Shown here: piece by piece, positions 7,016 through 22,391 of the stretch
Position numbering within the stretch: position 1 is the first letter of the stretch
How the letters are laid out: each line of letters starts with the position of its first letter
NCBI GenBank assembly: GCA_051294905.1
Contig: CM119372.1
Coordinates: 35,962,001-36,026,000, forward strand
Direction of reading: 5' to 3'
DNA from: Botryllus schlosseri
Taxonomy: Eukaryota
Length of the DNA stretch: 64,000 nucleotides
Notes under the pieces: model-generated
The model's database searches: none
Seen by the model: the letters and a program-made list of their open reading frames with translations, nothing else
What the model was told of the DNA's origin: nothing
Position numbers and translations under genes: made by a program

Positions 7016-7471
7016 TTACACAATTTCATTTTCTTGCTTCAGCTCCTTGACGAAGCGTCGTACGATCGAATCATTCTTGCGGTGATCTTCCCCAAAGGAA
7101 TTTAAATAACGTTCCGTACTCCATCCGCGCGCCTTATGGACGATGAAGCTTAGACAATGATGACCGCAAGCTCTGGAACGTTTGTGCTGCAGACGCTTTA
7201 TGGAGCAGGTATAATTTTCTGGTTCTATAAAGCACGCAATCTCGTATTTCAGCGGCATTAAGCCAAAGCTATCGTGAAAATGTGTCTCATCCTCATCCGC
7301 GTAAATGCATATCCAGTGACTTCCGATTTTTCGAGCTTCGTCATAATTGATCACGATAGCATAAGGAGGAGGGGGTCGCCTCGGTAGTCGATCGATAGGA
7401 AATGTGCCAAGGAAAATATGTTTTGTTGACTCGCAGCACCACAATATTTGGTCTATTTCATCCCCGTTCAT
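7016..7471 (-). CDS. Adenain-like (C5) cysteine maturation protease
   Basis: Catalytic pattern GSHW ... FHDSFG ... LQHKRSRACGHHC; AATAAA just downstream of the stop. Confidence 0.93.
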   Translation of the reverse strand: MNGDEIDQILWCCESTKHIFLGTFPIDRLPRRPPPPYAIVINYDEARKIGSHWICIYADEDETHFHDSFGLMPLKYEIACFIEPENYTCSIKRLQHKRSRACGHHCLSFIVHKARGWSTERYLNSFGEDHRKNDSIVRRFVKELKQENEIV

Positions 7472-8731
7472 AGCACGGTCACTTTACGACTGCTACTGAT
7501 TTGCAATAGCTTTTGGAATTCCATGAAACAGAGCAAAGTAGTTTCGGCTGTTAGCCCGCCAGCAGGAAATGTGATTCGTACACTTAAGGTGCCACTCTTT
7601 TGTAAGTCAAAGCAATCATCCAAATCATCAGGGCGCAAATTATAAACCAGTAGACAGAAACCACTAGCGAACTCTTCAGGCGTTAGGAGTCCTATGTTTT
7701 TCTCCATTGCTCCCGTACCCTCAATCAGGTTATGGTAAAGCTCCGTGTAATGACCCTTATCGAAATCTAGCTCATAACCTCCCTCCGGAATCAGAAATCC
7801 GTTCAGTTTCAGTTCGAGTCGTTGCATATTATTGTGTATGAAATTATAAGGATTTTTCGTAACATCTCCTTGAAAGGCTTTCGTAGCTACCATTCCGATG
7901 ATTAGGCGAGAAGGTAGAGTCCCGCTATATAGATTCCCGATATCTATCTGCGTCGTAGCAGCCGCAAATGTTCGGGTGATCAACTTCATGTCGATATACG
8001 GATATTTCGCCTGAGCATTCACCATCATCGCTGTCTTCACATCATCGCTGACTCGTACGGTACATAACTGTAATTCCTTTTTTGTTAAGGTGAATTGGCC
8101 GGTAGCATCTCCCATCATAAAAAAGCTTTTCGGATTCAAGGTAAGCTCAAACTCGAGAGGCACGTCATGTAGGATGTAGCGGTCTTGCAGACATAGTCCG
8201 TGATGGATTTTTGCACGTATTTCCACCACGTTATCATCCTTATAGGCTTTACTCCTGTTGTAATATCCTTTGTTAGCTGAGGCGTTAGTACCACCGATCG
8301 TATCCATTTTCCCCAAAGTATCTTTTCTTCATCCTGAAGTCCTGAGTGTGGTGTTTTGCACGTCAAGCGGAGTGATAGGACGAATAACACTGTACTTTTA
8401 TATCTTGTTTCAAAGTTTCGTTAGCGACTTTAATTTGTAGTTGAGAAATCAAGGAATCCAAGATATTATTTACAACACCAACATCATCATCGGGGCCAAT
8501 TGCTTCGCCGCCTTTCTTTAATTGTAAATGAAATAAGAAATAGCTCTCGCTCAAATCGATAAAGTCTTCTGAGCCCTCAAAGCGGAATGTTATCACACTA
8601 GAGTTGTTCGAAATCGGTGCTATCTTGATGATTCTTTTCTTTTCAACGCTAGTCTGTGTCGCGGGAATGTGAAATAAATCCAATGAGGGATGTACCCCCT
8701 CTGGGGACTGTACATGAATTAACTCCGCCAT
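7468..8731 (-). pseudogene. Major capsid protein (double jelly-roll type), disrupted by a frameshift and an in-frame TGA
   Basis: ORF 8363-8731 (SLDLF..PATQTSVE, FIDLSESY) and ORF 7468-8316 (LPSRLIIGMV, NPYNF, SGTLSVRITF) are two halves of a Polinton MCP. The C-terminal frame extended upstream reads TTLRTSG*RKDTLGKMD, and the frame changes near 8400. Confidence 0.85.
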
Positions 8732-8780
8732 CTATCAAGTCTCAAGTAACAAATGATGCTTATCGTCGTGTAATATATAT

Positions 8781-9152
8781 TTATTCGAAAATATCTTTGC
8801 GACGTCTCTTTTTCGTGATCTTACGACCCCGTCTTGGCATTTTTCTTTTTCTCAGTAAAGAATCGAGAGCGTTCCCAGCGGCTTCTTTGCCACGTATTTT
8901 AAGACTATCGCCGACATTCTCTCCATTAAGAACATCAGAGGCTACTTGCGCCCCGGTATGTAGTAGACGCTTCCCGAGTGATTTTGCACCTTTCGAAATT
9001 AGAGGCATAACGCTTCTTCCGAACGAACGAAATAAGTTTCCAAGTCCATGACCTCTCTGCACTTTACCCCGAAAAAAATTGATATCACCACCGCTCTGTT
9101 GGTGATAATAGTTTCTGAACGCCTCCCGATCACAGCAATAATGACTCCTCAT
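8781..9152 (-). CDS. Basic virion core/cement protein with protease-cleavage-like motifs and an amphipathic helix
   Basis: YYxQQSGG and QRGHG-LGNLFRSFGR motifs typical of Polinton core proteins; Arg/Lys-rich tail ending DIFE; lies just before MCP. Confidence 0.75.
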   Translation of the reverse strand: MRSHYCCDREAFRNYYHQQSGGDINFFRGKVQRGHGLGNLFRSFGRSVMPLISKGAKSLGKRLLHTGAQVASDVLNGENVGDSLKIRGKEAAGNALDSLLRKRKMPRRGRKITKKRRRKDIFE

Positions 9153-9852
9153 GATGTCTCAAAGCAAGTGTGAGATGAAGAGGCGCGTTCCCAAACTTTA
9201 TAGCTTCGCCTTTATCATCACGAAGCATAACGCGTATCTCGCTTACTCGCTCCGTATTCAGAGGAAAGAAATATATTTTTTTGAATAGCATATGCTGATA
9301 TTCATCTATTCCCGTTGTAACACGGATATTGCGTAGTAGAGGCGCACTCGTATCACCTACAATTTGAGGGGTGATGACATCCGTATAAACTAAAACGTTG
9401 GTCACGGACACAGGTTCCCCTTGAAAGTGAATTTTTCTTCGTCTATGTAATCCACCATCTAGCTCTACCTCCGAACGAGCTCCTCCTCTGAGAACGGGGT
9501 TTCTATTATCCATGAAAAGTCTCGGACCGCTGGAACTCTTGTAAGGTCCCGCTATCAAGACCGGACCAGAACCGTCTACCCAAATAAATCGTGCTTTTTT
9601 CTGATCGTGATTGATACGCTTCATCAAACTAATTTTATCATGATAATCACCAGCCGGGAAATAATAAAAATTATTATCGCCTTCCGCATCATTCACGTAC
9701 CATAATAAGCCATCGTAAGGCTCGAACGTGGGCTGAAAATTATTTTTAAAAGACAACTCGGCAAGCCCTATCTCCCATTCACCAGAATCTATCGGTTTCG
9801 CGAGATCGATAGTAAAATCAGACTCGTGTGACGTAATATGAATATATTTCAT
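9130..9852 (-). CDS. Minor capsid (penton-like) protein, paralog 2
   Basis: WEIGLAELSF, VYTDVITPQIVGDTSAPLLRNI, YFFPL, LRDDKGEAIKF motifs of Polinton minor capsid proteins. Confidence 0.8.
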   Translation of the reverse strand: MKYIHITSHESDFTIDLAKPIDSGEWEIGLAELSFKNNFQPTFEPYDGLLWYVNDAEGDNNFYYFPAGDYHDKISLMKRINHDQKKARFIWVDGSGPVLIAGPYKSSSGPRLFMDNRNPVLRGGARSEVELDGGLHRRRKIHFQGEPVSVTNVLVYTDVITPQIVGDTSAPLLRNIRVTTGIDEYQHMLFKKIYFFPLNTERVSEIRVMLRDDKGEAIKFGNAPLHLTLALRHHEESLLL

Positions 9853-10658
9853 AATGCAACTCCCCGTCTACGAAAATGCAATACAACACTCGAAGGAGAA
9901 CTTCGAAAGGGTATTTTCTCACCCTCCTCATCAAGTAGCGATATTTCGACACGTTCTAGCCTATTTATATTAACAGGGAAATAAAATGGCTTCGTGTAAT
10001 ATTTCGAAAATGATTTACGATCGTTCACCTGTACGACACGTAACAACGGTAAGAGCCTACCGCTATCTTCTTGTGGCTCAATGATATTACAATGAACATA
10101 AACGAAATCGATAGTCGGATCATGTCGCATGCGAAAGTTCAAATGAATGATACCCTCAGTGAAAAAATAATTCCACAATGTACAATTAGTATTCGGGAAA
10201 TGAAACACCAATAACTCCTCCTTCGTTTCCTTACGCATAAGAGCACCGTACAATTCTCCGCGGCGTACCAAGCTACTATGCCCTATGTCCGTCTCTGGTC
10301 GCAATTTGTCGGTTACCTCGTTATGAGGTATAGAGATAGACATACTATGATTTTCAGGGAAACATGTTACTTTTGCATCAGGATTGTCTCTTTCCAACGA
10401 TCTATACAGGTCATATAACGAGTCGTATTCTCCCAATTTAAAATGAAATTTTCTTGCTCTCTTTTGCGATCTGATCCCATACCTATTCTTCGTGATCCTA
10501 TACTGTTTTTGATAATCCGTGGGGAAGGAGATCTCAGCCAGAGAAACTTCTGTATCTTCCACGTTTTTCGGGACGTCCAATTCAACGCAATAACTCGCTG
10601 TTGTATTATCAGGAAATTTATCCATGGAAGCGTTCGAAAATAGCGTGACGTAGCTCAT
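9849..10658 (-). CDS. Minor capsid (penton-like) protein, paralog 1 (likely start ATG 10658)
   Basis: MSYVTLFSNASMDKFPDNT start, EVSLAEISFP, YVHCNIIEPQ..LPLLRVV, SVVLHFR. Confidence 0.82.
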   Translation of the reverse strand: MSYVTLFSNASMDKFPDNTTASYCVELDVPKNVEDTEVSLAEISFPTDYQKQYRITKNRYGIRSQKRARKFHFKLGEYDSLYDLYRSLERDNPDAKVTCFPENHSMSISIPHNEVTDKLRPETDIGHSSLVRRGELYGALMRKETKEELLVFHFPNTNCTLWNYFFTEGIIHLNFRMRHDPTIDFVYVHCNIIEPQEDSGRLLPLLRVVQVNDRKSFSKYYTKPFYFPVNINRLERVEISLLDEEGEKIPFRSSPSSVVLHFRRRGVAL

Positions 10659-10864: not shown

Positions 10865-11194
10865 ATCCCAACCAGCGTACTAAATACTGTTCTCGTCCCG
10901 CGCGTTTACGCCTTCTTATAATCTTTTCGACACGCCAAGCTTGCGGTTCTTTTACGCGTTGGAGCTCCTCTCTATAAAATCTACCCTGGATGACTTCACC
11001 ACCGTAATCACGTAAGCCAGGGGTCGGCAACCTTTTGTTAGTCGCGGGCCAAACTTCGGGTGTTCAACCTTTTGGCGGGCCGGATTTTTTCTTTGTACTA
11101 TATTTTACGCTCACTTCGGTATATTATCCTACATTGCTGCAATCTCAATCATACCAACCCGAAGAGACATGTATTTACACTTCAACGACACAGA

Positions 11195-11620
11195 ATAATT
11201 GTGACAATTGCCGCAGCTTGCTTTGTGAAAGGTTTTCAACTTCTGGTAACAAGTCAGATGAAACAAGAATCAGACCCTATTCAAAATGGACGTCCGAAAT
11301 ACGTGATCTTAGCTTGCTCTTCGTGAATTTCATTGTTCAAAACTTTTGTTCACATGCGTACGTGCTTCCAAAAATCGATGCAATTTCTTTTGCATTGCTG
11401 GTCAAGCTGGGATAAAGACCAATTTCAAGAAAGTACTCTTTGTCAAAGTCATGCAGCGATATGCTCTTTGTATGAAATTTGTCATTCAATTCAACTGCAT
11501 CGCATTTTAGAAACGCCCATTTTCAGGCAATGGTATTGGCGTCCACATTAAACGGAGTACTGAATAGTCCGAATTAATTTTGTAGAGAAGGAATGTCGGA
11601 AAAGCGGGTGAATATTCAGT
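11195..11620 (-). pseudogene. Remnant of hAT transposase C-terminal dimerization region
   Basis: Manual minus-strand translation gives LFSTPFNVD and IASIFGSTYACEQKF*TMKFTKSKLRSRISDVHFE*, with stops. Confidence 0.8.
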
Positions 11621-12340
11621 AGTTAAACTTCGTATCACAGTTACAAATGTAATGTTGGTACTAGGTTTTCTCTCCTCCAGTATAGGAAACTGAGCATGAT
11701 TTTCTTTTTACTGTTGACATTTCAAGAGTCACAGATTTGTTTTGAATGCGCCTCAACATCTCATGTATGTAGTTGTTTTCCCCCTGAAGTTGCAAGTTCA
11801 ATTTGTTCAGATGTGACGTTAAATGTACCAGGAAAGCAAGATGAGATACCCATTTTCGATTACAAGATTACGAGTCGGCGATGTTTGTATTTTCGAGGAA
11901 AGTTGCTATTTCATTTCTCAGTTCATACACTCGTGTAAGCATAGCTTCTCGACTCAATGAGCGAACATGACAGATATAGGCCTACATGACATAGCCATAT
12001 TGATTCTCTGCTTCTAGTAATATCTGGCGTAACTGATTCAGTTGATGAGGCAAAAATCATATTAACAGTTATCCCCATTGTGGCCAAAACACTATTCAGG
12101 CACACAATGGCACACAATGCCTTCTGGAAAATCAAACCATAGACAGGCTAACTAACATACGGAGGCTAGTTATCTATAATCGAATAGTTTGAGATTCCGT
12201 CATTGCGTCTGAGATGCTCCAAGCGTTTTTGAAGCAAAGGAAGAACACCTTTATTGTCACACCCCGTTAGAGTGATTAGCGCTTTAAAAAAGCATGGAAC
12301 ACCTTCGGTTGCGACATACACCCGATTGATAAGTCTATAG

Positions 12341-13554
12341 CAGTGTTGCCAACTCCGGATGGAAGAAAATCGCTAAAACTGGTGTCAAAAATCGCTAGAT
12401 AGCGCTAAATATTGAGAAAAAAGCGCTAAAAAATAGCGCTAAATCTGCAAAAGGTGCTAAAGGTGTTAAATTGAACCATTATATCGATATATTCTTCTCA
12501 GCTATATTTTACTCGTCTGGGGCCAAAGTCACTTATCATACGTAATAGTCATATCTAAGCGTGACAAAACGGCAGTGCATTTCGATAAAGCAGATCGCTT
12601 TGCGCAACGATCGCTATACTGTGAACACTGACCAGGTTTGCAGGCATAACCGCTCACTATATCAGCGTGCCTTACTCGATGCGTCCGTGAATACGTGATG
12701 CGATGTACCGTGGTTATGCGCTTGACTTCTTCTCTAAACTGTGTTGGAGTTGGCCTACTTGATCACGACATGCGACTTGACACACGTGGACACGACATGC
12801 GACTTGACCCGTCACAATACGACGTTGAAACGGGTTTGTTTTCCACTATAAGTAGAGACCTTAAGAAAATAATCCGAGGACCAACCCGGTGTATGAAATG
12901 TAATTAATCTGGCCTTAAACGAATGACCAGACATTGGAGCGACCTCAAAACAGTCCCCAAAGTCTGGAAATCGGCATTGATAAGAACAATCGCTGGACGA
13001 AATTGGTCATTGTTATGTTCATTGTGTTGCGGCGGTGCCATTGTTGGAGCAATAATGCCGGTTTTCAGACTTTGAGGGCTGTTTCGGGGTGCATGGTTCC
13101 ATTGTCCGGACCAGATTTTATTTCGTATTTTCGAAATCACTGCGACACTATCTTTCGATTATGGCCATTGGCCAATTATATTAAACTTCAGCGTTCAGGT
13201 CGCCAGTTTTAGCACTGCCAACTATGCTACTTTTAGATTACTCAGCAAGAAGAGACACTGTTTGCCAATGCGTAACCGCCAGGAGTTGCGTATCTACTAC
13301 TATCTATCGGCAGGTAGTAATCTATAATCATATTTCATCGGAGTCCGCACTCTAGTGATCGGTATAGCCAATGCAGTCGTCAGCCAGAACTGATCTTTAG
13401 TGGTTATTTTCGGTAAAAAAGCGCTAAATAATCGCTAAATACTTCTTCAAAAATCGCTAGATTTATCGCTAGGCGCTAGATCCATATTTTTTGGCGCTAA
13501 ACCGGATGAAAAATCGCTAGATCTAGCGCGAAAATCGCTAAATTGGCAACACTG
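12341..13554. mobile_element. Non-autonomous hAT-like element nested in the 11018-13806 element
   Basis: TIRs CAGTGTTGCCAA / TTGGCAACACTG; many AAATCGCTA subterminal repeats at both ends; imperfect TSD GTCTATAG / GCTCTATAG. Confidence 0.82.
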
Positions 13555-14600
13555 GCTCTATAGTCTATCTCCATATCCTACTTCAACCACCTTCGTTTTA
13601 TGGCGTAACAATAGACTAATACGATGTAGGCTACTATTATATCGTAGCAATGCCGCATTTTTTTCATGCAGCGCTGTACTGCAGATTGAAACTCATTATG
13701 AAGCGGCGGGCCGTATTCTTGTGATAACTAATTATTATGTCGCGGGCCGGACGATTTCGCTTGGCGGGCCGGATCCGGCCCGCGGGCCGTAGGTTGCCGA
13801 CCCTTGACGTAAGCGATACATTGGGGGATCCCCCTTTTGGGCGTCTGCGATATAGAAAATTTCCCGTTGCCAGTTGGGTAGGCTGCTTTTCTCAAAAAGA
13901 TTTCGAATTTTCGATATACGGACGGGTAATCCTATAGCGAGGTCGGGTTGTTTAGCTTCTTGAAATCCGTAAAGTCTTCTCCAAACCGATTCCTGATTAG
14001 ACGAATTCACTTGGTTTGGGGCCATGGCAATGCTACGATGGTACGTCCTGTTGTAGGAGTAAGTAAAGTCATCGAGAGCGCTCACGTAATTCCTCGTGTT
14101 ATTTTTTGTGAAAAATCGATACATAATCGCCTTCATAGTACGAATCACCCTTTCGACGACAGAGGATTTTAATTCGCTCCTCGTATAGAAATATCTAACT
14201 TTGTTCTCCTTTAGATAGTTCTGGAAAGCGCGATTGGTATATTCGCTACCTTGATCGGTTTGTAACACTAACGGTACGCGTTCACGAAACACACGTTTGA
14301 AAGCAGAAATCATACTTGAAGCAGTTTTATTTTTAATCGCTATCATCCAAAGGTATTTGCTAAAAATATCAATCACCACCACCACAAAACGAAAACCGCT
14401 ATTGTACTTTGAAATAGATTGCAGATCCATCAAATCGCTCTGAAACTGAGCATTGATACCGGAGACCACTACACGTTCACGCCTAAATTTCTTACGTAAC
14501 GGAAAATGAAAAGTATAAGTATCTTGTCCTTTAAGCCATTCTTTTTCCTTTTGCAAATAAGCGCCCCTATACGATTTGGGCTGTTTCGGATCAAAATAGT

Positions 14601-14939
14601 CTACGTCTCCCATTCTTTCCCGTATATACGGGGATTAGGCTTACGCTGTCTCTTATAAAGCCAGGGAAACGAAGGTTGTGGAATCCGGCGCGGGCGTTTC
14701 TTTTGCGGGCGCTTTTCTTTCGCTACGGGGCTCGCGAGCCCCGTGTGTGCGGCGGGAGGGCGGGCGGTCGCTGCGTCTACGTCTTTTCTCAAGTTTCTCA
14801 GTTGAGCAATACCATGCCTATACAGAGCTAGTTTCTCGGAAGCATGTAATGGAGAGCTTTTAATTTTCGATATATGTTTATCAAATTTCTTTTCCCATTC
14901 GTCCTTGCTTCGAAATGCGGGGAATTGTAGTTCACGCAT
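14601..14939 (-). CDS. Polinton protein of unknown function, basic C-terminus
   Basis: Co-oriented ORF overlapping both neighbours; FDKHISKI..LHASEKLALY resembles a recurring Polinton N-terminal motif. Confidence 0.55.
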   Translation of the reverse strand: MRELQFPAFRSKDEWEKKFDKHISKIKSSPLHASEKLALYRHGIAQLRNLRKDVDAATARPPAAHTGLASPVAKEKRPQKKRPRRIPQPSFPWLYKRQRKPNPRIYGKEWET

Positions 14940-15340
14940 TCTTCCCGAAAAGTTTACCCAACAGACTCCCGATGACGGGGATTGCAGCGCCTAATATAGC
15001 TAAAAACAGACCGGTTAGAAAAAAGTTTCTATTTTATCATAATTTTTATACCTGAGAGGAATCCACCCTTTTGTAGCACCCTCCGTTGACCTCTGCGAGT
15101 TTTTTGCGCCAGCAATTGTCTGATATCGGATTTGTGTTTTCCAAGCCTCAACTTTCTAGACGGGGAGATACGTACTGTCCCCGAAGCCAAGTTATGAACG
15201 CACTGGCAGACGCAACTTAAAAATTGATTGTTCGATAAAAGTTCTTTTCGCTGTTTCCCTTTAGCGTTTTTCAAAAGTTTTAATTTAACGTGATAGTCGC
15301 TCAATCGTTTTCGAGATATGTTACTTCCCCTCTTCGACAT
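14932..15340 (-). CDS. Adenovirus pX-like basic core protein, two exons (15052-15340, 14932-14999), 118 aa
   Basis: 52-nt GT..AG intron 15051-15000 with CTAAC branch-like motif; splicing gives QKGG-FLSAILGAAIPVIGSLLGKLFGKNA*. Confidence 0.8.
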
Positions 15341-15375
15341 GTTGAATGCCCTAAAATCTGCAGCGCGAGCTGTAT

Positions 15376-15993
15376 TTATTCTTGATATACCGTCAACTTT
15401 TGGTGTGGGAATATTTTGCTGCGGAGACGATAATTTTCGTCTGTCTCTTGCGTCAAGTCAACTAGTATGTACGAGAACGGTTTTCGAGTTGCCTTTTTAT
15501 AAGCCTCCGTAAGGAATCCGGCTTTATCGGGGAACATTTGACGTGAAAGAAAACTGATTTGACTCGCATCACGGGGATTTTTAAATATCACGATATAGCT
15601 CGCGCTCAGGGTCATATCCCGAAAGCCTTGACCCCTATAGAACAAATTTTGACATATGAACACCACGCTGATCTTTGCGTGATGACTGTATCGAGTGAAT
15701 AGATCTCTGGCCTCTTTCGCTTCCGTCATCATGTCGTCGATCACCAAGAGAACGTGCCTATTTCCTTTCTGTAACTTTTTGAGCTCGGAGAGCCCTTGCG
15801 AGAATTCTACCCCTTTCATTTTATCGTACAACTCCTGATAATTATTATACAACCATACAATTTTTTCAGGAGCCGGTCTAATCATCTTCTCTGCGTTCTT
15901 CACCAACTCATAAGTAAAATAACTCTTCCCGCTACTGCTCGGACCAGCTACGATCATCCGAAACGGAGCATGCAATGTACGTATTCGATCCAT
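15376..15993 (-). CDS. A32/FtsK-HerA-like DNA packaging ATPase
   Basis: Walker A GPSSSGKS, Walker B LLVIDD, SHHAKISVVFICQN, FKNPRD. Confidence 0.95.
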   Translation of the reverse strand: MDRIRTLHAPFRMIVAGPSSSGKSYFTYELVKNAEKMIRPAPEKIVWLYNNYQELYDKMKGVEFSQGLSELKKLQKGNRHVLLVIDDMMTEAKEARDLFTRYSHHAKISVVFICQNLFYRGQGFRDMTLSASYIVIFKNPRDASQISFLSRQMFPDKAGFLTEAYKKATRKPFSYILVDLTQETDENYRLRSKIFPHQKLTVYQE

Positions 15994-15996
15994 TTA

Positions 15997-18900
15997 TTAC
16001 AGAGATAAAGGCAATGTATGAATTCCATCATTAAGCACAATCCTTTTATAATAACCATAACTCAATGCACTTCGATATTGCTTATACGTAAACATATCGC
16101 CCCCATAGCAACGAAAACCGCTATTGACGCCACCCGTGATCGATCTATTTTGAAGAATGCCTTTGAAATCTTTGAAAGTTTTGTTGGCCGTTTTTTGAAG
16201 CCCTTTCGAGCTGTACTTATCGCTGTCGCCTTTGCAATAATAGGTCTTGGAATTGAGGCCTATAAACCCATCTCCGATCCATTCTTCTTTGAATAAGCCC
16301 GGTATACGTTTCGAGTAATTGCGAACCTCAATGCAGCAAGCTTTATCAGTTTTAAAACCAACGGGAACTCGTTCAAAATCGCATTTATGCTCTCCACATG
16401 CGCGAGCCACGAACCATTTGTCGTGATTTTCAAAAAATTGTTTTTTCATGGAAGGCTTGATGAGAGAATAGATCGTATCGGAGCTTAAGCTTATGTACGC
16501 CGAATCAGTATCTGTTTCGAGGAAAGCCCAATCGCTATCGTCCAAATACACATGCAGACAGTCATATAGGAACTCGAGCATTCTCAGCTTGGCACAACAG
16601 AATATAAAGAAGCCCACAATGACTGGGTTTTCGTGACAAATGTTAAGGGGACGCGTAGCTACTTCGAGCAAGCCTTCATCGCTCTTATCAATTTCAACAG
16701 CATCGACAAAAAATTTTTTTTCAACGCGCGATGGTAATTCTTCCAATTTAACGTATTCGTGTTCCCTATATTTATTAGGGTTTTGAATAGTACGACCAAA
16801 AGCACTATTTCCAATCGTCTTCCAGGTCAACGCTTCCATTTCACGGGCCGGATCTTTTGGGAGGACATCGCCTTTGCGACGCTCAGAGGATACCCGCTCA
16901 ACGAAGGGTGTGAAAACTTGTTTTGGTTCATATTCGACAGCTTGGAATACGCGAGTCACGATCATGCCGCTTTTCAAGTACCACTGAAGCAAATCCGTAT
17001 TAAACAACTGTTTTTTCGTGAAATAACTAGAGCCCAGAAATTTTTTTGGAAACTTAATATTGTTTTCCTTGGCGTATTCACGCATATGTTCACCGATATC
17101 GCACTCGTTTACTTCCATATGTTTGAAAAAAAGAGGTAACTCTTCGAATTTCGATTTTAAATGGTCGGGACAATGAATGTCACACTCGATTGCACCGAAA
17201 AATGACCCGTCGAGCGTGCGCTTGAGCAACTGCGCCTCAGTGAGATAATAAGCTTTCGTGACTTTACGCTCGAACTTTGAGGCAAATTGCGCAATTTCAG
17301 GGTCTCGTTTCATATTCGTCCAAACGCACTCCTTCATACGGATAACGGTATATCCCAATTTTTCCAAATATTCCGTGTTTTGTTTGGTGAGTTCACGCCT
17401 TTCGGTGTTCTCTTTATCAGGGAAGCAGCTCCTACAAGCGTGGTAATAGCACCCATCGTACTGAAAGATGAGTTTACCGGCGTTCCCGTCGACAAATAGG
17501 CGTTTATTTCCGATTCTCACTTGACTACCGTTCCACGCGTGTTGAATTTTGATGTCACGAACGTGACTTTCGTATTCCAACCATTCGCGCTCCGCATGAG
17601 TAGGCCAAACGCGCTGTTTATGGAATTTTTGCTTTTCCTCATCATAAATCCACCTTATAGGGTAACCCGTTGGCATATTTTGATTTATGCACCCCAAATA
17701 GAGGGCATTGGCGTCGTATCCTACTACTTTCTTGACGGTTTTAGCACTGTCACCGTAGCGAAGACTGCGTATTTTCGTTTCACCCGCCATAGCGTACCGT
17801 GACGTAATCTGTGATAAACCTCCTACCAAGTTGTTCAGAATCGTTTCGTGAAGGTCAGCATTGGCCTTATTCAGAAGAGTGATATCGCAGCAATCACGAA
17901 ACATTAGTCTACTCGCTATATTCGGAAGGCTCACGTTACCCTTGAACATATCGATGCCAAGCGTTTTGTAAAATTCGAAATTGTTATTCAGCGCGGTCAG
18001 GAAGCCAATGACGTCACCTTCGTTGTAATATCGGAGAAAATCACGGAATGTGGTCATACCCTCGCGTTCCCATACAGCGACGCATTCTGCGTATTGCTCT
18101 TCCGTTATATTCGAATTGCGGAACGCGTTGTAAAACGATTCATGGGTCGGTAGCGACGTTTCATCAAGACGCTCGATGCTATCGAGATATTCGTAAGGGA
18201 AATAAAATTTTGCGTTTACCCCATCCCCGTATAGCTTCATGTACGCATCCAAACTATAACCCGGACTCGGGAATAGCGAAATATCCAGAAATTTTAATCT
18301 GTGCGTTGCGATTGTCAAATAGGCGCTGTTCCTTTTCAAAACGAAGAATCCGCTTTCCTTGTGCAAGGATTTGATTAGATATTTCTTGCATAAATTCAGA
18401 TCATAGCGCGAGGAATTGAAACCGATTATGGGTATCTGATCAAGCCACGTATGGAGTCGAAGCGAGATATTATCCAAATAGGATCTCCTATTAGTGGGAT
18501 CGATCAATTTCCGTTCTTCAATCAAATTCTCAAGTTCGATTATTTCGCTAGCGAAAGATTCTCGCATTTCGGTTGAGGCGAGTTCTTGTACGCGATAAAT
18601 TTCCCCAATCATTTCATCGATTAACGTCTGCGGGCAACCCTCGGATATGAAAGTTTTTGTTTCATTCGTTACGTTATTCGATAAGGACACAGAGACGGGA
18701 ACATGCCGATTAACGTATTCTACTTTTGCAGAATTAGCTCTGAGCTCATCCTTCACGAGCATGGATTCAAAGTCAAAACACATACGGTACGGGAAGAATC
18801 TCTTTTGGTTCTCAACGAAAATGCCTTCGGATTCCAATTGCTCGAATACGGTGGGTTTAGGACGATATACGCCGCTGGCATAATTCCGAGTCTGGGACGT

Positions 18901-19875
18901 TTTGCATTCACGTTTTAGATGCTTTGTCAGATTTGGCTTGGTTTTAAAGAAAAACTTGCATGATTCACAAAAGAATGTCTGGGAATAGAGTTCAATATTT
19001 GTGATCAAGCATGAATGAGAACGTTCCATGTGTATATGAACCACTGGGCCATCCGCTTCAGACTGTCGCAATAAAAATGGTTGATGATCGCGTTTTTCAT
19101 AAACAAGTATCTTTACGTGAAAACATTCCTCAACTTTATTCAGTTCATCGAGCGGTACACCATCATCTATAGGGATACGGTAACGTTCACGAAATTGAGA
19201 GGCCAATAGTGCGACGTGCTTCTCATCTCGTTTTTTCTTGATGAATTGGGATAAGCAACGGAAGAGGCATAGCGAATCGTTCAGTTGTGTTCCGTCCTGA
19301 TGTCGAACAAACGTTCTAATATACCGACAGTTTGATAGTTCCTTAGATATCGATGCACTAGGGCAGCCCAGTAAAACTCGCGGCATTTCGTACAAGAAAA
19401 ATTGAATATGTAATATTGCAACGCAATAAAACTTGGTGTCTGGTCTGGCTTGTCTGGCTTGCTCGTAAGCAGCTGATAAATCGATTTCGTTGATGAAACG
19501 ATCAAAGTCCTCACGTGAAAGTATAGGTGTCGGTAGATCCAAAACAGCATGGGTTGATTGCGGATGAAAATAGCTACGTCTTTCCGTCTCTCGATTATAA
19601 AGCAGGAAACCATAAGCATAGTTAGCTTTGAATTGTCGCAATCTTCTCGGGTATATCGATGACATGCGCGCATGAATATCATTTATACCTCTCCCGATCA
19701 GGCGTACATTGATCGCCTCTCTCGCCCCTCTCGCAACCCTCCTGCTGTTAAGCCACTCGGAATCGATAATCGAGTTGGAGTGCGATTGCATAAGCTCTGT
19801 TGCGTCGTTATTAAAACCGAGCGAATCATCGATGATGAAGCTAGCATCTTCTTCGTAGCGTCTTCGACGAGCCAT
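15997..19875 (-). CDS. Protein-primed family B DNA polymerase (pPolB), 1292 aa, uninterrupted
   Basis: Exo I CFDFES, Exo II FNSSRYD, Exo III YNEGDV, Pol A YDANALY, Pol B KTIGNSAFG, Pol C ETDTDS, SKTY, SSKG. N-terminal CLFRCL..HSCLI, a Cys/His finger and an internal VSR-like nuclease insert (QYDGCYYHAC). Confidence 0.97.
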   Translation of the reverse strand: MARRRRYEEDASFIIDDSLGFNNDATELMQSHSNSIIDSEWLNSRRVARGAREAINVRLIGRGINDIHARMSSIYPRRLRQFKANYAYGFLLYNRETERRSYFHPQSTHAVLDLPTPILSREDFDRFINEIDLSAAYEQARQARPDTKFYCVAILHIQFFLYEMPRVLLGCPSASISKELSNCRYIRTFVRHQDGTQLNDSLCLFRCLSQFIKKKRDEKHVALLASQFRERYRIPIDDGVPLDELNKVEECFHVKILVYEKRDHQPFLLRQSEADGPVVHIHMERSHSCLITNIELYSQTFFCESCKFFFKTKPNLTKHLKRECKTSQTRNYASGVYRPKPTVFEQLESEGIFVENQKRFFPYRMCFDFESMLVKDELRANSAKVEYVNRHVPVSVSLSNNVTNETKTFISEGCPQTLIDEMIGEIYRVQELASTEMRESFASEIIELENLIEERKLIDPTNRRSYLDNISLRLHTWLDQIPIIGFNSSRYDLNLCKKYLIKSLHKESGFFVLKRNSAYLTIATHRLKFLDISLFPSPGYSLDAYMKLYGDGVNAKFYFPYEYLDSIERLDETSLPTHESFYNAFRNSNITEEQYAECVAVWEREGMTTFRDFLRYYNEGDVIGFLTALNNNFEFYKTLGIDMFKGNVSLPNIASRLMFRDCCDITLLNKANADLHETILNNLVGGLSQITSRYAMAGETKIRSLRYGDSAKTVKKVVGYDANALYLGCINQNMPTGYPIRWIYDEEKQKFHKQRVWPTHAEREWLEYESHVRDIKIQHAWNGSQVRIGNKRLFVDGNAGKLIFQYDGCYYHACRSCFPDKENTERRELTKQNTEYLEKLGYTVIRMKECVWTNMKRDPEIAQFASKFERKVTKAYYLTEAQLLKRTLDGSFFGAIECDIHCPDHLKSKFEELPLFFKHMEVNECDIGEHMREYAKENNIKFPKKFLGSSYFTKKQLFNTDLLQWYLKSGMIVTRVFQAVEYEPKQVFTPFVERVSSERRKGDVLPKDPAREMEALTWKTIGNSAFGRTIQNPNKYREHEYVKLEELPSRVEKKFFVDAVEIDKSDEGLLEVATRPLNICHENPVIVGFFIFCCAKLRMLEFLYDCLHVYLDDSDWAFLETDTDSAYISLSSDTIYSLIKPSMKKQFFENHDKWFVARACGEHKCDFERVPVGFKTDKACCIEVRNYSKRIPGLFKEEWIGDGFIGLNSKTYYCKGDSDKYSSKGLQKTANKTFKDFKGILQNRSITGGVNSGFRCYGGDMFTYKQYRSALSYGYYKRIVLNDGIHTLPLSL

Positions 19876-19908
19876 ATAGTTTTAAGTATATTCTGTAAAA
19901 ATAGACAT

Positions 19909-21809: not shown

Positions 21810-22391
21810 ATGTCGAACATTAATCAAAGCGATTCGCTACCTAGCCGTAGTGTGGATCCTACGAATTATGCTGCATTAAACTGCGCTTGCATCGGTACCA
21901 CAAGTAGCATAGATATAAGCGAAGATGAAACTCGGACGGGTCCCATTGAACAGTACCAAGCTATGATAAATAACAGAGGAGAAAAGATTTATGAATGCTA
22001 TGCGAAGCATAGAGATGTAACTGTCTCCCCGTTGAATGATCCCGTTTTCTATAACATGGTACGCTATGCTCGTAGACTAAGCACATTTATGCGGTGGCCG
22101 GATAATATCAATACCTCTGGAACCGAGCTCGCAGACTGCGGATTGTTCTATTTGGGCTATAAGGATCATTTAAAGTGTTTCTCGTGTGGCGGGCTGTTTC
22201 AAAATTGGTTGCCGTGCGATGACCCCTGGCTCGAGCATGCAAAGTTTTATCCTACGTGTCCTTTTCTCATAAAGCGTAAGGGGTTGCAATATATTCGTAA
22301 TGTCTGTTATGCGACACCTAATATAAGAAGAGGCTCGACTAAATTTGATGGCGAGGTGGAATTGCGTGATGACTGTTGTACTTATGTTTGA
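21810..22391 (+). CDS. Single-BIR inhibitor-of-apoptosis-like protein, no RING
   Basis: RRLSTFMRWP..ELADCGLFY..DHLKCFSCGG..WLPCDDPWLEHAKFYPTCPFL with complete CxxC..H..C zinc ligands. Confidence 0.92.
   Translation: MSNINQSDSLPSRSVDPTNYAALNCACIGTTSSIDISEDETRTGPIEQYQAMINNRGEKIYECYAKHRDVTVSPLNDPVFYNMVRYARRLSTFMRWPDNINTSGTELADCGLFYLGYKDHLKCFSCGGLFQNWLPCDDPWLEHAKFYPTCPFLIKRKGLQYIRNVCYATPNIRRGSTKFDGEVELRDDCCTYV

Follow-up and report, generated by a model that had tools for sequence, protein, structure and literature searches.

A small gene of a Polinton-type element in the genome of Botryllus schlosseri is interrupted by a stop codon inside a 52-nt segment that has the appearance of a spliceosomal intron, and the question raised by this locus is whether the segment is removed to complete the protein, retained to shorten it, or simply a lesion in one copy. 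The stretch of DNA analysed, referred to below as the window, comprises 64,000 nt (assembly GCA_051294905.1, 495 Mb; contig CM119372.1, positions 35,962,001–36,026,000 of the forward strand).

The split gene and the element around it

The gene occupies positions 15340–14932 of the minus strand, with the ATG at 15340. Read without splicing, it yields a 103-codon ORF (15340–15029) ending in ...QKGGFLSGIKIMIK, and its stop codon, a TAG at 15031–15029, lies within the 52-nt segment (15051–15000), which starts with GTATAA, carries CTAAC at 15018–15014, and ends in TTTTTAG, with a T-run directly before the AG. When 15052 is joined to 14999, a split codon (G|CT) is formed, 21 more codons follow, and a frame of 118 codons in total ends at a TGA (14934–14932), which overlaps the start (ATG at 14939) of the downstream ORF112. 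A first-pass annotation had claimed both the unspliced stop and the restoration of the frame by removal of the 52 nt; its coordinates all match, with the 118-codon frame reaching 14932, and the exon 2 peptide quoted there is the translation of the whole codons 14997–14935. The exon 1 product is strongly basic, with a net charge of +22 over 96 amino acids. The features of the gene and its immediate downstream neighbour are as follows:

15052–15340, minus strand: exon 1 of the GasderminX-like gene, consisting of 96 whole codons and the first base of the split codon
15062–15073, minus strand: Q-K-G-G codons, the predicted protease site and the most conserved motif of the family; the putative cut falls between 15062 and 15061, before F
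15000–15051, minus strand: predicted phase-1 GT-AG intron, 52 nt in the window copy, with an in-frame TAG on read-through
15014–15018, minus strand: CTAAC branch-point-like motif, 15 nt before the acceptor (from the A to the 3' end of the intron)
14932–14999, minus strand: exon 2, starting with two bases that finish the split codon, followed by 21 codons for a hydrophobic glycine-zipper tail and by the TGA stop
14601–14939, minus strand: ORF112, 112 codons, its ATG overlapping the last codons of exon 2

The surrounding Polinton/adintovirus-type element lies on the minus strand and extends from about 7000 to about 22900; no terminal repeats were found within the window. Besides several small and mid-size ORFs, it contains the following genes:

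15997–19875, minus strand: polymerase-like ORF of 1292 codons, from the ORF list
15376–15993, minus strand: packaging-type (A32-type) ATPase gene, directly upstream of the split gene (Pfam Pox_A32, E 1.7e-8)
13735–14613, minus strand: retrovirus-type integrase gene, shortened by an insertion (Pfam rve, E 3.3e-13)
7468–8731, minus strand: capsid gene (double-jelly-roll match below threshold, E 0.0062)
7016–7471, minus strand: gene of a candidate adenain-like (clan CE) maturation protease (Atlas protein-language-model neighbours)
21810–22391, plus strand: BIR (inhibitor-of-apoptosis) domain gene at the far end of the element (Pfam BIR, E 1.2e-18)

The protease candidate had no Pfam match; among its 30 nearest named Atlas clusters, 23 carry Peptidase_C5 on 27–38% of their members (scores 0.97–0.98), and the search against the PDB returned the ASFV S273R protease alone, with an E-value of 0.54. 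The polymerase-like ORF contains motifs, recognised by eye, which we take to be of family-B type; searches of Pfam, PHROGs, and PDB sequences gave no significant match for it. The weak Pfam rows of this ORF included Pox_F12L (E 0.0057) and RAP (E 0.0054), and a stretch at about residues 300–325 resembles a C2H2 zinc finger (PDB, E 0.009).

A second intron was considered in the capsid gene, which is read as two ORFs (8731–8363 and 8307–7468), and was ruled out: the interruption (window positions 8307–8395) is due to a private 14-nt deletion, and five of the eight sister loci examined have a single uninterrupted frame of 425 codons. A 2.8-kb insertion at 11018–13806, absent from a sister copy and showing a junction overlap of about 8 bases, breaks the 3' part of the integrase gene. 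The capsid deletion and the integrase insertion therefore indicate that the window copy is defective. The intron of the GasderminX-like gene is the sole coding intron found in the genes checked.

Conservation of the segment among copies and lineages

At least 40 copies with 97–100% identity were found in the genome, and the segment is spanned in all of them. In an alignment of 30 copies over 501 nt, all seven indel columns fall within the 52-nt segment, and substitutions were observed at 10 of its 52 positions versus 41 of the 449 positions elsewhere. One of the 30 copies, with a changed start region, was dropped from scoring, and the other 29 matched the pattern: both the GT and the AG are intact and the joined 118-codon frame is whole in every one. 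The length of the intron in these sister copies is 50 nt (3 copies), 51 nt (19), 52 nt (6), or 54 nt (1), and the branch-point motif among the 30 copies of the window lineage is CTAAC in 18, CTAAT in 10, and CTAAG in 2. The first-pass annotation had reasoned that sister copies without the 52 nt would mark the segment as a private insertion; instead, the segment with its GT and AG is present in 29/29. Since most sister copies are 97–99% alike and are close kin, they carry little independent weight, but the segment is also carried by four other lineages.

These lineages were recovered by a genome search with a single database protein, relative P0002, which gave 150 scored matches, and 16 representatives were fetched. 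According to a hand count, about 70 of the 150 matches end at query residues 98–104, and about 80 extend to residues 117–119. A GT...CTAAC...YAG segment was found at the same phase-1 position in 11/11 sampled copies from four further lineages, with a length of 54 nt (67 nt in one copy), an in-frame stop on read-through in each copy, and the CTAAC located 14–17 nt from the acceptor in all. Exon 1 of these copies has 54–81% nucleotide identity to that of the window copy. All lineages compared at the DNA level come from the window's own genome, five of them, including that of the window, being intron-bearing. In a more distant, intron-less family of the same genome, all five sampled copies have the tail directly after GG. 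A search of viral contigs with P0002 revealed no relative.

The two exons and the intron have diverged to different extents. For the three closest lineage pairs, the nucleotide identities of exon 1, intron, and exon 2 are 0.81, 0.60, and 0.91; 0.75, 0.53, and 0.81; and 0.69, 0.60, and 0.77, respectively. In the spliced frame of exon 2, pS between lineages is 0.37–1.09 versus a pN of 0–0.12, and one lineage pair differs by six synonymous and no replacement changes. These comparisons show strong purifying selection on exon 2 alongside divergence of the intron sequence, and protein-level conservation of exon 2 is confined to the spliced frame. The fixed position, the kept signals, the internal drift and length change, and the protein constraint beyond the segment together argue for a real and old intron; neither a dead insertion nor a site of frameshifting nor an independent small ORF would give this pattern. 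The earlier claim of a spliceosomal intron is thus borne out by comparative evidence, with conserved U2-type GT-AG features in 29/29 sister copies and 11/11 copies of other lineages. At the level of coding sequence, the gene is shown to be complete only after removal of the intron. Because most relatives lack the intron, a single gain in the ancestor of the five lineages is probable.

Two raw RNA runs and two contig sets compared with 14500–16100 gave no spliced joints. One raw RNA run contained eight reads on this interval, all of them at 15850–16100 and outside the intron, and the other raw RNA run contained none. The contigs that span the intron are unspliced and their source may be DNA; one of them, of 2,059 nt, comes from a run guessed to be RNA. 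The existence of unspliced contigs, together with the defects of the window copy elsewhere, would fit a dead insertion, or a tail produced without splicing by frameshifting, bypass, or a separate start of translation in exon 2, but we regard such readings as extremely improbable given that the position, the splice signals, and the exon 2 protein are conserved across five lineages. A fixed frameshift is ruled out by segment lengths of 50–54 and 67 nt, which include multiples and non-multiples of three, all with stops, while the exon 2 frame, from the stop that precedes it as far as the exon, lacks an ATG from which translation could be initiated independently.

We therefore favour, with a probability of about 0.78, the explanation that the 52 nt represent a true GT-AG intron of host type, and that most transcripts likely lose it by splicing and encode a 118-residue precursor of the GasderminX type.

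The encoded protein and its predicted maturation site

A word-based protein search with exon 1 gave no match, while a full HMMER search with the same query found 296 relatives at E ≤ 1e-3, mostly of 105–125 residues. Among the best 150 of these hits, 107 have a hydrophobic tail of 15–45 residues (median 23) directly after a [polar]-G/S-G motif, and most of the remainder have variant motifs. The first-pass annotation had proposed to check whether the tail follows GG contiguously in homologues; it does so in these 107 of the best 150 hits and in all five sampled copies of the intron-less family. The warning that ORF-only annotation would miss exon 2 also proved apt: in P0001, the top-ranked hit in the database, the ORF call is 99 aa long and stops two codons past the junction. 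Further hits that terminate shortly behind GG include P0008, P0017, P0077, and P0115. The annotation of Polinton elements is ORF-based, and ORF callers drop the part of the protein thought to be membrane-active, as in this public entry.

A structural model was built by AlphaFold2 on P0002 (45% identity to exon 1), using an alignment of 92 relatives (A1). The model (pLDDT 87.6, pTM 0.76) consists of seven helices, the last of which (residues 97–118) begins directly after GG. In a Foldseek search against BFVD, it matched GasderminX of the Terrapene box turtle adintovirus (A0A5H3CT60) with an E-value of 2e-5, a probability of 1.00, and TM-scores of 0.69/0.75; the fold alignment covers 115 columns with an rmsd of 2.9 and 30% identity, and the next viral match had an E-value of 0.89. 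The fold match of this relative suggests that the gene is the adintovirus GasderminX gene. Elsewhere, only generic helical bundles were found, the best Foldseek match in the PDB having an E-value of 0.13 and the best wide VIA-align match a Z-score of 5.3. With the A1 profile, no significant match was obtained among PDB sequences; the first-ranked entry (E 0.39) was pneumovirus F0, whose cleavage site and fusion peptide lie in the aligned part, and this is no more than an analogy. A likeness of the GasderminX body to the regulatory domain that gasdermins carry at their C-terminus has been claimed on the basis of HHpred (PMC8502044); the gasdermin family was absent among the 25 commonest Pfam matches of the 92 relatives and among the listed PDB fold matches.

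The first-pass annotation had likened the C-terminal part to adenovirus pX. A pX-like domain has been attributed to the GasderminX of adintoviruses (Starrett et al. 2021; PMC8502044, section 3.2), and the Pfam family Adeno_PX (PF05829) was matched below threshold by 26 of the 92 relatives (best E 1.6e-4), the next family being matched by 5 of the 92. These matches cover the basic stretch, the GG, and the start of the tail. The likeness thus stands in kind, but the link is weak because no relative (0/92) reaches the Adeno_PX gathering cut-off of 25 bits. Exon 1 alone had no match in Pfam at E ≤ 0.01, and Adeno_PX was the nearest named Atlas cluster, with a score of 0.79 that is to be read as a lead only.

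The GG is invariant in the 92 relatives of A1, and at least 90% of them carry Q at −3 relative to the cut and at least 90% carry F at +1. In the window protein, GG occurs once within the 96 residues encoded by exon 1, and the 21 whole codons of exon 2 encode no further one. The proposal of an adenain GG site was right about the GG itself, but position P4 is occupied by Q, here and in at least 90% of the 92 relatives, which is outside the adenovirus consensus quoted in PMC7998265 ((M/L)XGG, or M/L/I at P4); P5 and P6 carry hydrophobic residues. The Q-x-G-G motif recalls the ends of SUMO precursors, which are cut by related clan CE proteases. The body of the relatives has a median net charge of +17, versus +22 in the window protein. 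The tail of the window protein has a mean Eisenberg hydrophobicity of 0.50, contains a GxxxGxxxG zipper, and has a helical moment of 0.36, a value attained in 5.4% of shuffles. Describing it as amphipathic, as had been done, overstates this modest moment, the tail being mainly hydrophobic. Across the 92 relatives, the hallmark of the family is the Q-x-G-G-F sequence at which the folded basic body meets the glycine-zipper tail, and it offers a concrete predicted maturation site.

The gene had also been called a virion core gene. A preprint ranks GasderminX, in the portion of its text available, among proposed virion core proteins (10.1101/341131), and the composition of the protein agrees with this, but the locus lies between the ATPase and integrase genes, outside the capsid gene block. 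The designation as a virion core protein therefore rests on the published proposals and the composition.

If the segment is spliced out as we propose, the basic, predicted all-helical body would be joined to a C-terminal hydrophobic glycine-zipper helix. The candidate adenain-like protease of the element could then cut the precursor at Q-x-G-G, before F, during particle maturation. The products would be a basic body, probably associated with DNA, and a released membrane-seeking peptide of about 25 residues, which may help entry, as proposed for adenovirus core proteins of the pX/pVI class. To our knowledge, the particles of this Polinton group have never been studied.

The first-pass annotation went further and proposed that retention versus splicing gates the tail. 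In this alternative, both outcomes would be used, giving tail-bearing and tail-less isoforms, and the intron would act as a switch. An early in-frame stop is present in the intron in all five lineages, so that a retained transcript would encode the basic body alone, the intron is located within four codons of the predicted cleavage site, and the 2,059-nt contig crosses it unspliced. However, this contig may be derived from DNA, stops are expected by chance in A+T-rich introns, and cleavage at GG would give an identical body from both isoforms. Moreover, the read-through peptides, which extend 3 to 11 residues past the split codon, differ in every lineage and are not conserved, which leaves the gating proposal unsupported. 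A conserved intron does not by itself show regulation, and we consider regulated retention quite unlikely.

Among 15 ORFs of the element that were scanned, Q-x-G-G occurs in two, the split gene and the ORF at 9152–8781, which is too few for significance. The latter, a basic ORF of 123 codons on the minus strand in the capsid block (8781–9152), has its Q-x-G-G near the N-terminus, followed by an amphipathic stretch rich in lysine and glycine. It had no family match and may encode a Cupiennin/pVI-like membrane-active partner of GasderminX.

Neighbouring genes and comparison with known systems

A dual use of the acceptor of the intron is another conceivable reading. The AG at 15001–15000 could also start a separate mRNA for ORF112, whose ATG lies 60 nt further on, through trans-splicing of a host leader or through an upstream leader exon, with the choice between cis and trans use dividing a polycistronic transcript. 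The polymerase, ATPase, GasderminX-like, ORF112, and integrase genes are indeed arranged head to tail, with junctions of 3 nt and 35 nt and overlapping ones, and this is the sole strong acceptor within 100 nt upstream of the ORF112 ATG. The contigs, however, show neither a loose end nor a foreign leader at 14999/15000. Each of the 11 copies sampled from the other lineages with the intron keeps the overlap of the ORF112 ATG with the stop of exon 2, but so does the intron-less family of the same genome, with no acceptor there. ORF112 itself had no family match. Such a dual role of the acceptor appears highly unlikely to us. In more general terms, the intron could be a control point at which removal, retention, or acceptor use sets the output of the tail versus that of ORF112 and the integrase. 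We regard this as unlikely; if true, it would mean that host splicing is exploited in the manner of adenoviruses by a group regarded as free of introns.

Removal of the intron from most transcripts, the explanation favoured here, has a bearing on how these elements are expressed. A conserved non-cargo gene that needs host splicing for its full product argues for nuclear, spliceosome-dependent expression, and the conserved intron may be taken as an indication that the spliceosome of this host is used by its Polintons.

In its gene content, with an integrase, an A32-type ATPase, a candidate protease, a putative capsid gene, and a polymerase-like ORF, the element resembles Mavericks/Polintons. 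Intact vertebrate Mavericks were described, in the parts of the article available, as having intronless ORFs, in agreement with Kapitonov and Jurka (Barreat and Katzourakis 2021; PMC8097293), and Widen et al. (10.1101/2022.07.12.499685, accessible text) reported core genes without introns and introns in cargo only. Unlike these published elements, a conserved non-cargo gene here has an intron that is needed to complete its protein. Spliceosomal introns inside Polinton-like elements are known in another form, since introners, which are recent mobile insertions, sit in dinoflagellate eupolintoviral proviruses (PMC12166617, as far as its available sections go). The intron described here differs from them in that it appears to be a single-site, old, and coding one, common to lineages about 40–50% diverged in DNA.

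Like GasderminX, the protein is about 110–120 aa long, predicted to be all-helical, and provided with a hydrophobic C-terminus of weak likeness to pX, and it is encoded by a Polinton/adintovirus element with an adenain-like protease candidate. In contrast, its pX-like end is placed on an exon of its own behind a conserved intron of 50–54 nt, whereas GasderminX genes are treated as plain ORFs in the accessible portions of the published work. A literature search, with the supplementary figures of PMC8502044 outside its scope, found no report of an intron in GasderminX. The gene family and its pX-like end are already known, and the conserved coding intron between this end and the body appears to be new.

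The adenovirus precursor pX/pMu is likewise basic and has a conserved C-terminal piece behind a GG site for the protease. It is described in the available part of PMC7998265 (section 2.5) as an arginine-rich protein of about 79 aa from which three pieces arise by cleavage at two (M/L)XGG sites, whereas the present family has a folded helical body of about 90 aa, a single invariant GG, and Q at P4. A further parallel is adenovirus protein VI and the 'Macc' class of membrane-active capsid core proteins proposed by Buck et al. 2024 (PMC11071296, sections available), in which a membrane-active part of a capsid-interior protein is thought to be freed by a protease for entry. In comparison with pVI, no sequence or fold match was obtained in the general searches, and the membrane activity of the tail is proposed from its composition.

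Some other observations were made along the element. On the minus strand, an acceptor-like T-run with AG occurs 17 nt before the ATG of the polymerase-like ORF (19876–19906), and a TAG directly precedes the capsid ATG (8732–8740). Two overlapping minus-strand ORFs of 240 and 269 codons (9130–9852 and 9849–10658), for which no family match was found, are visibly similar in their C-terminal halves and are probably old tandem duplicates. Finally, sequencing runs with three organism codes contain most of the sampled words of 14600–16000 (0.77 for organism B and 0.67 for organism C), and the family may therefore be common to related hosts.
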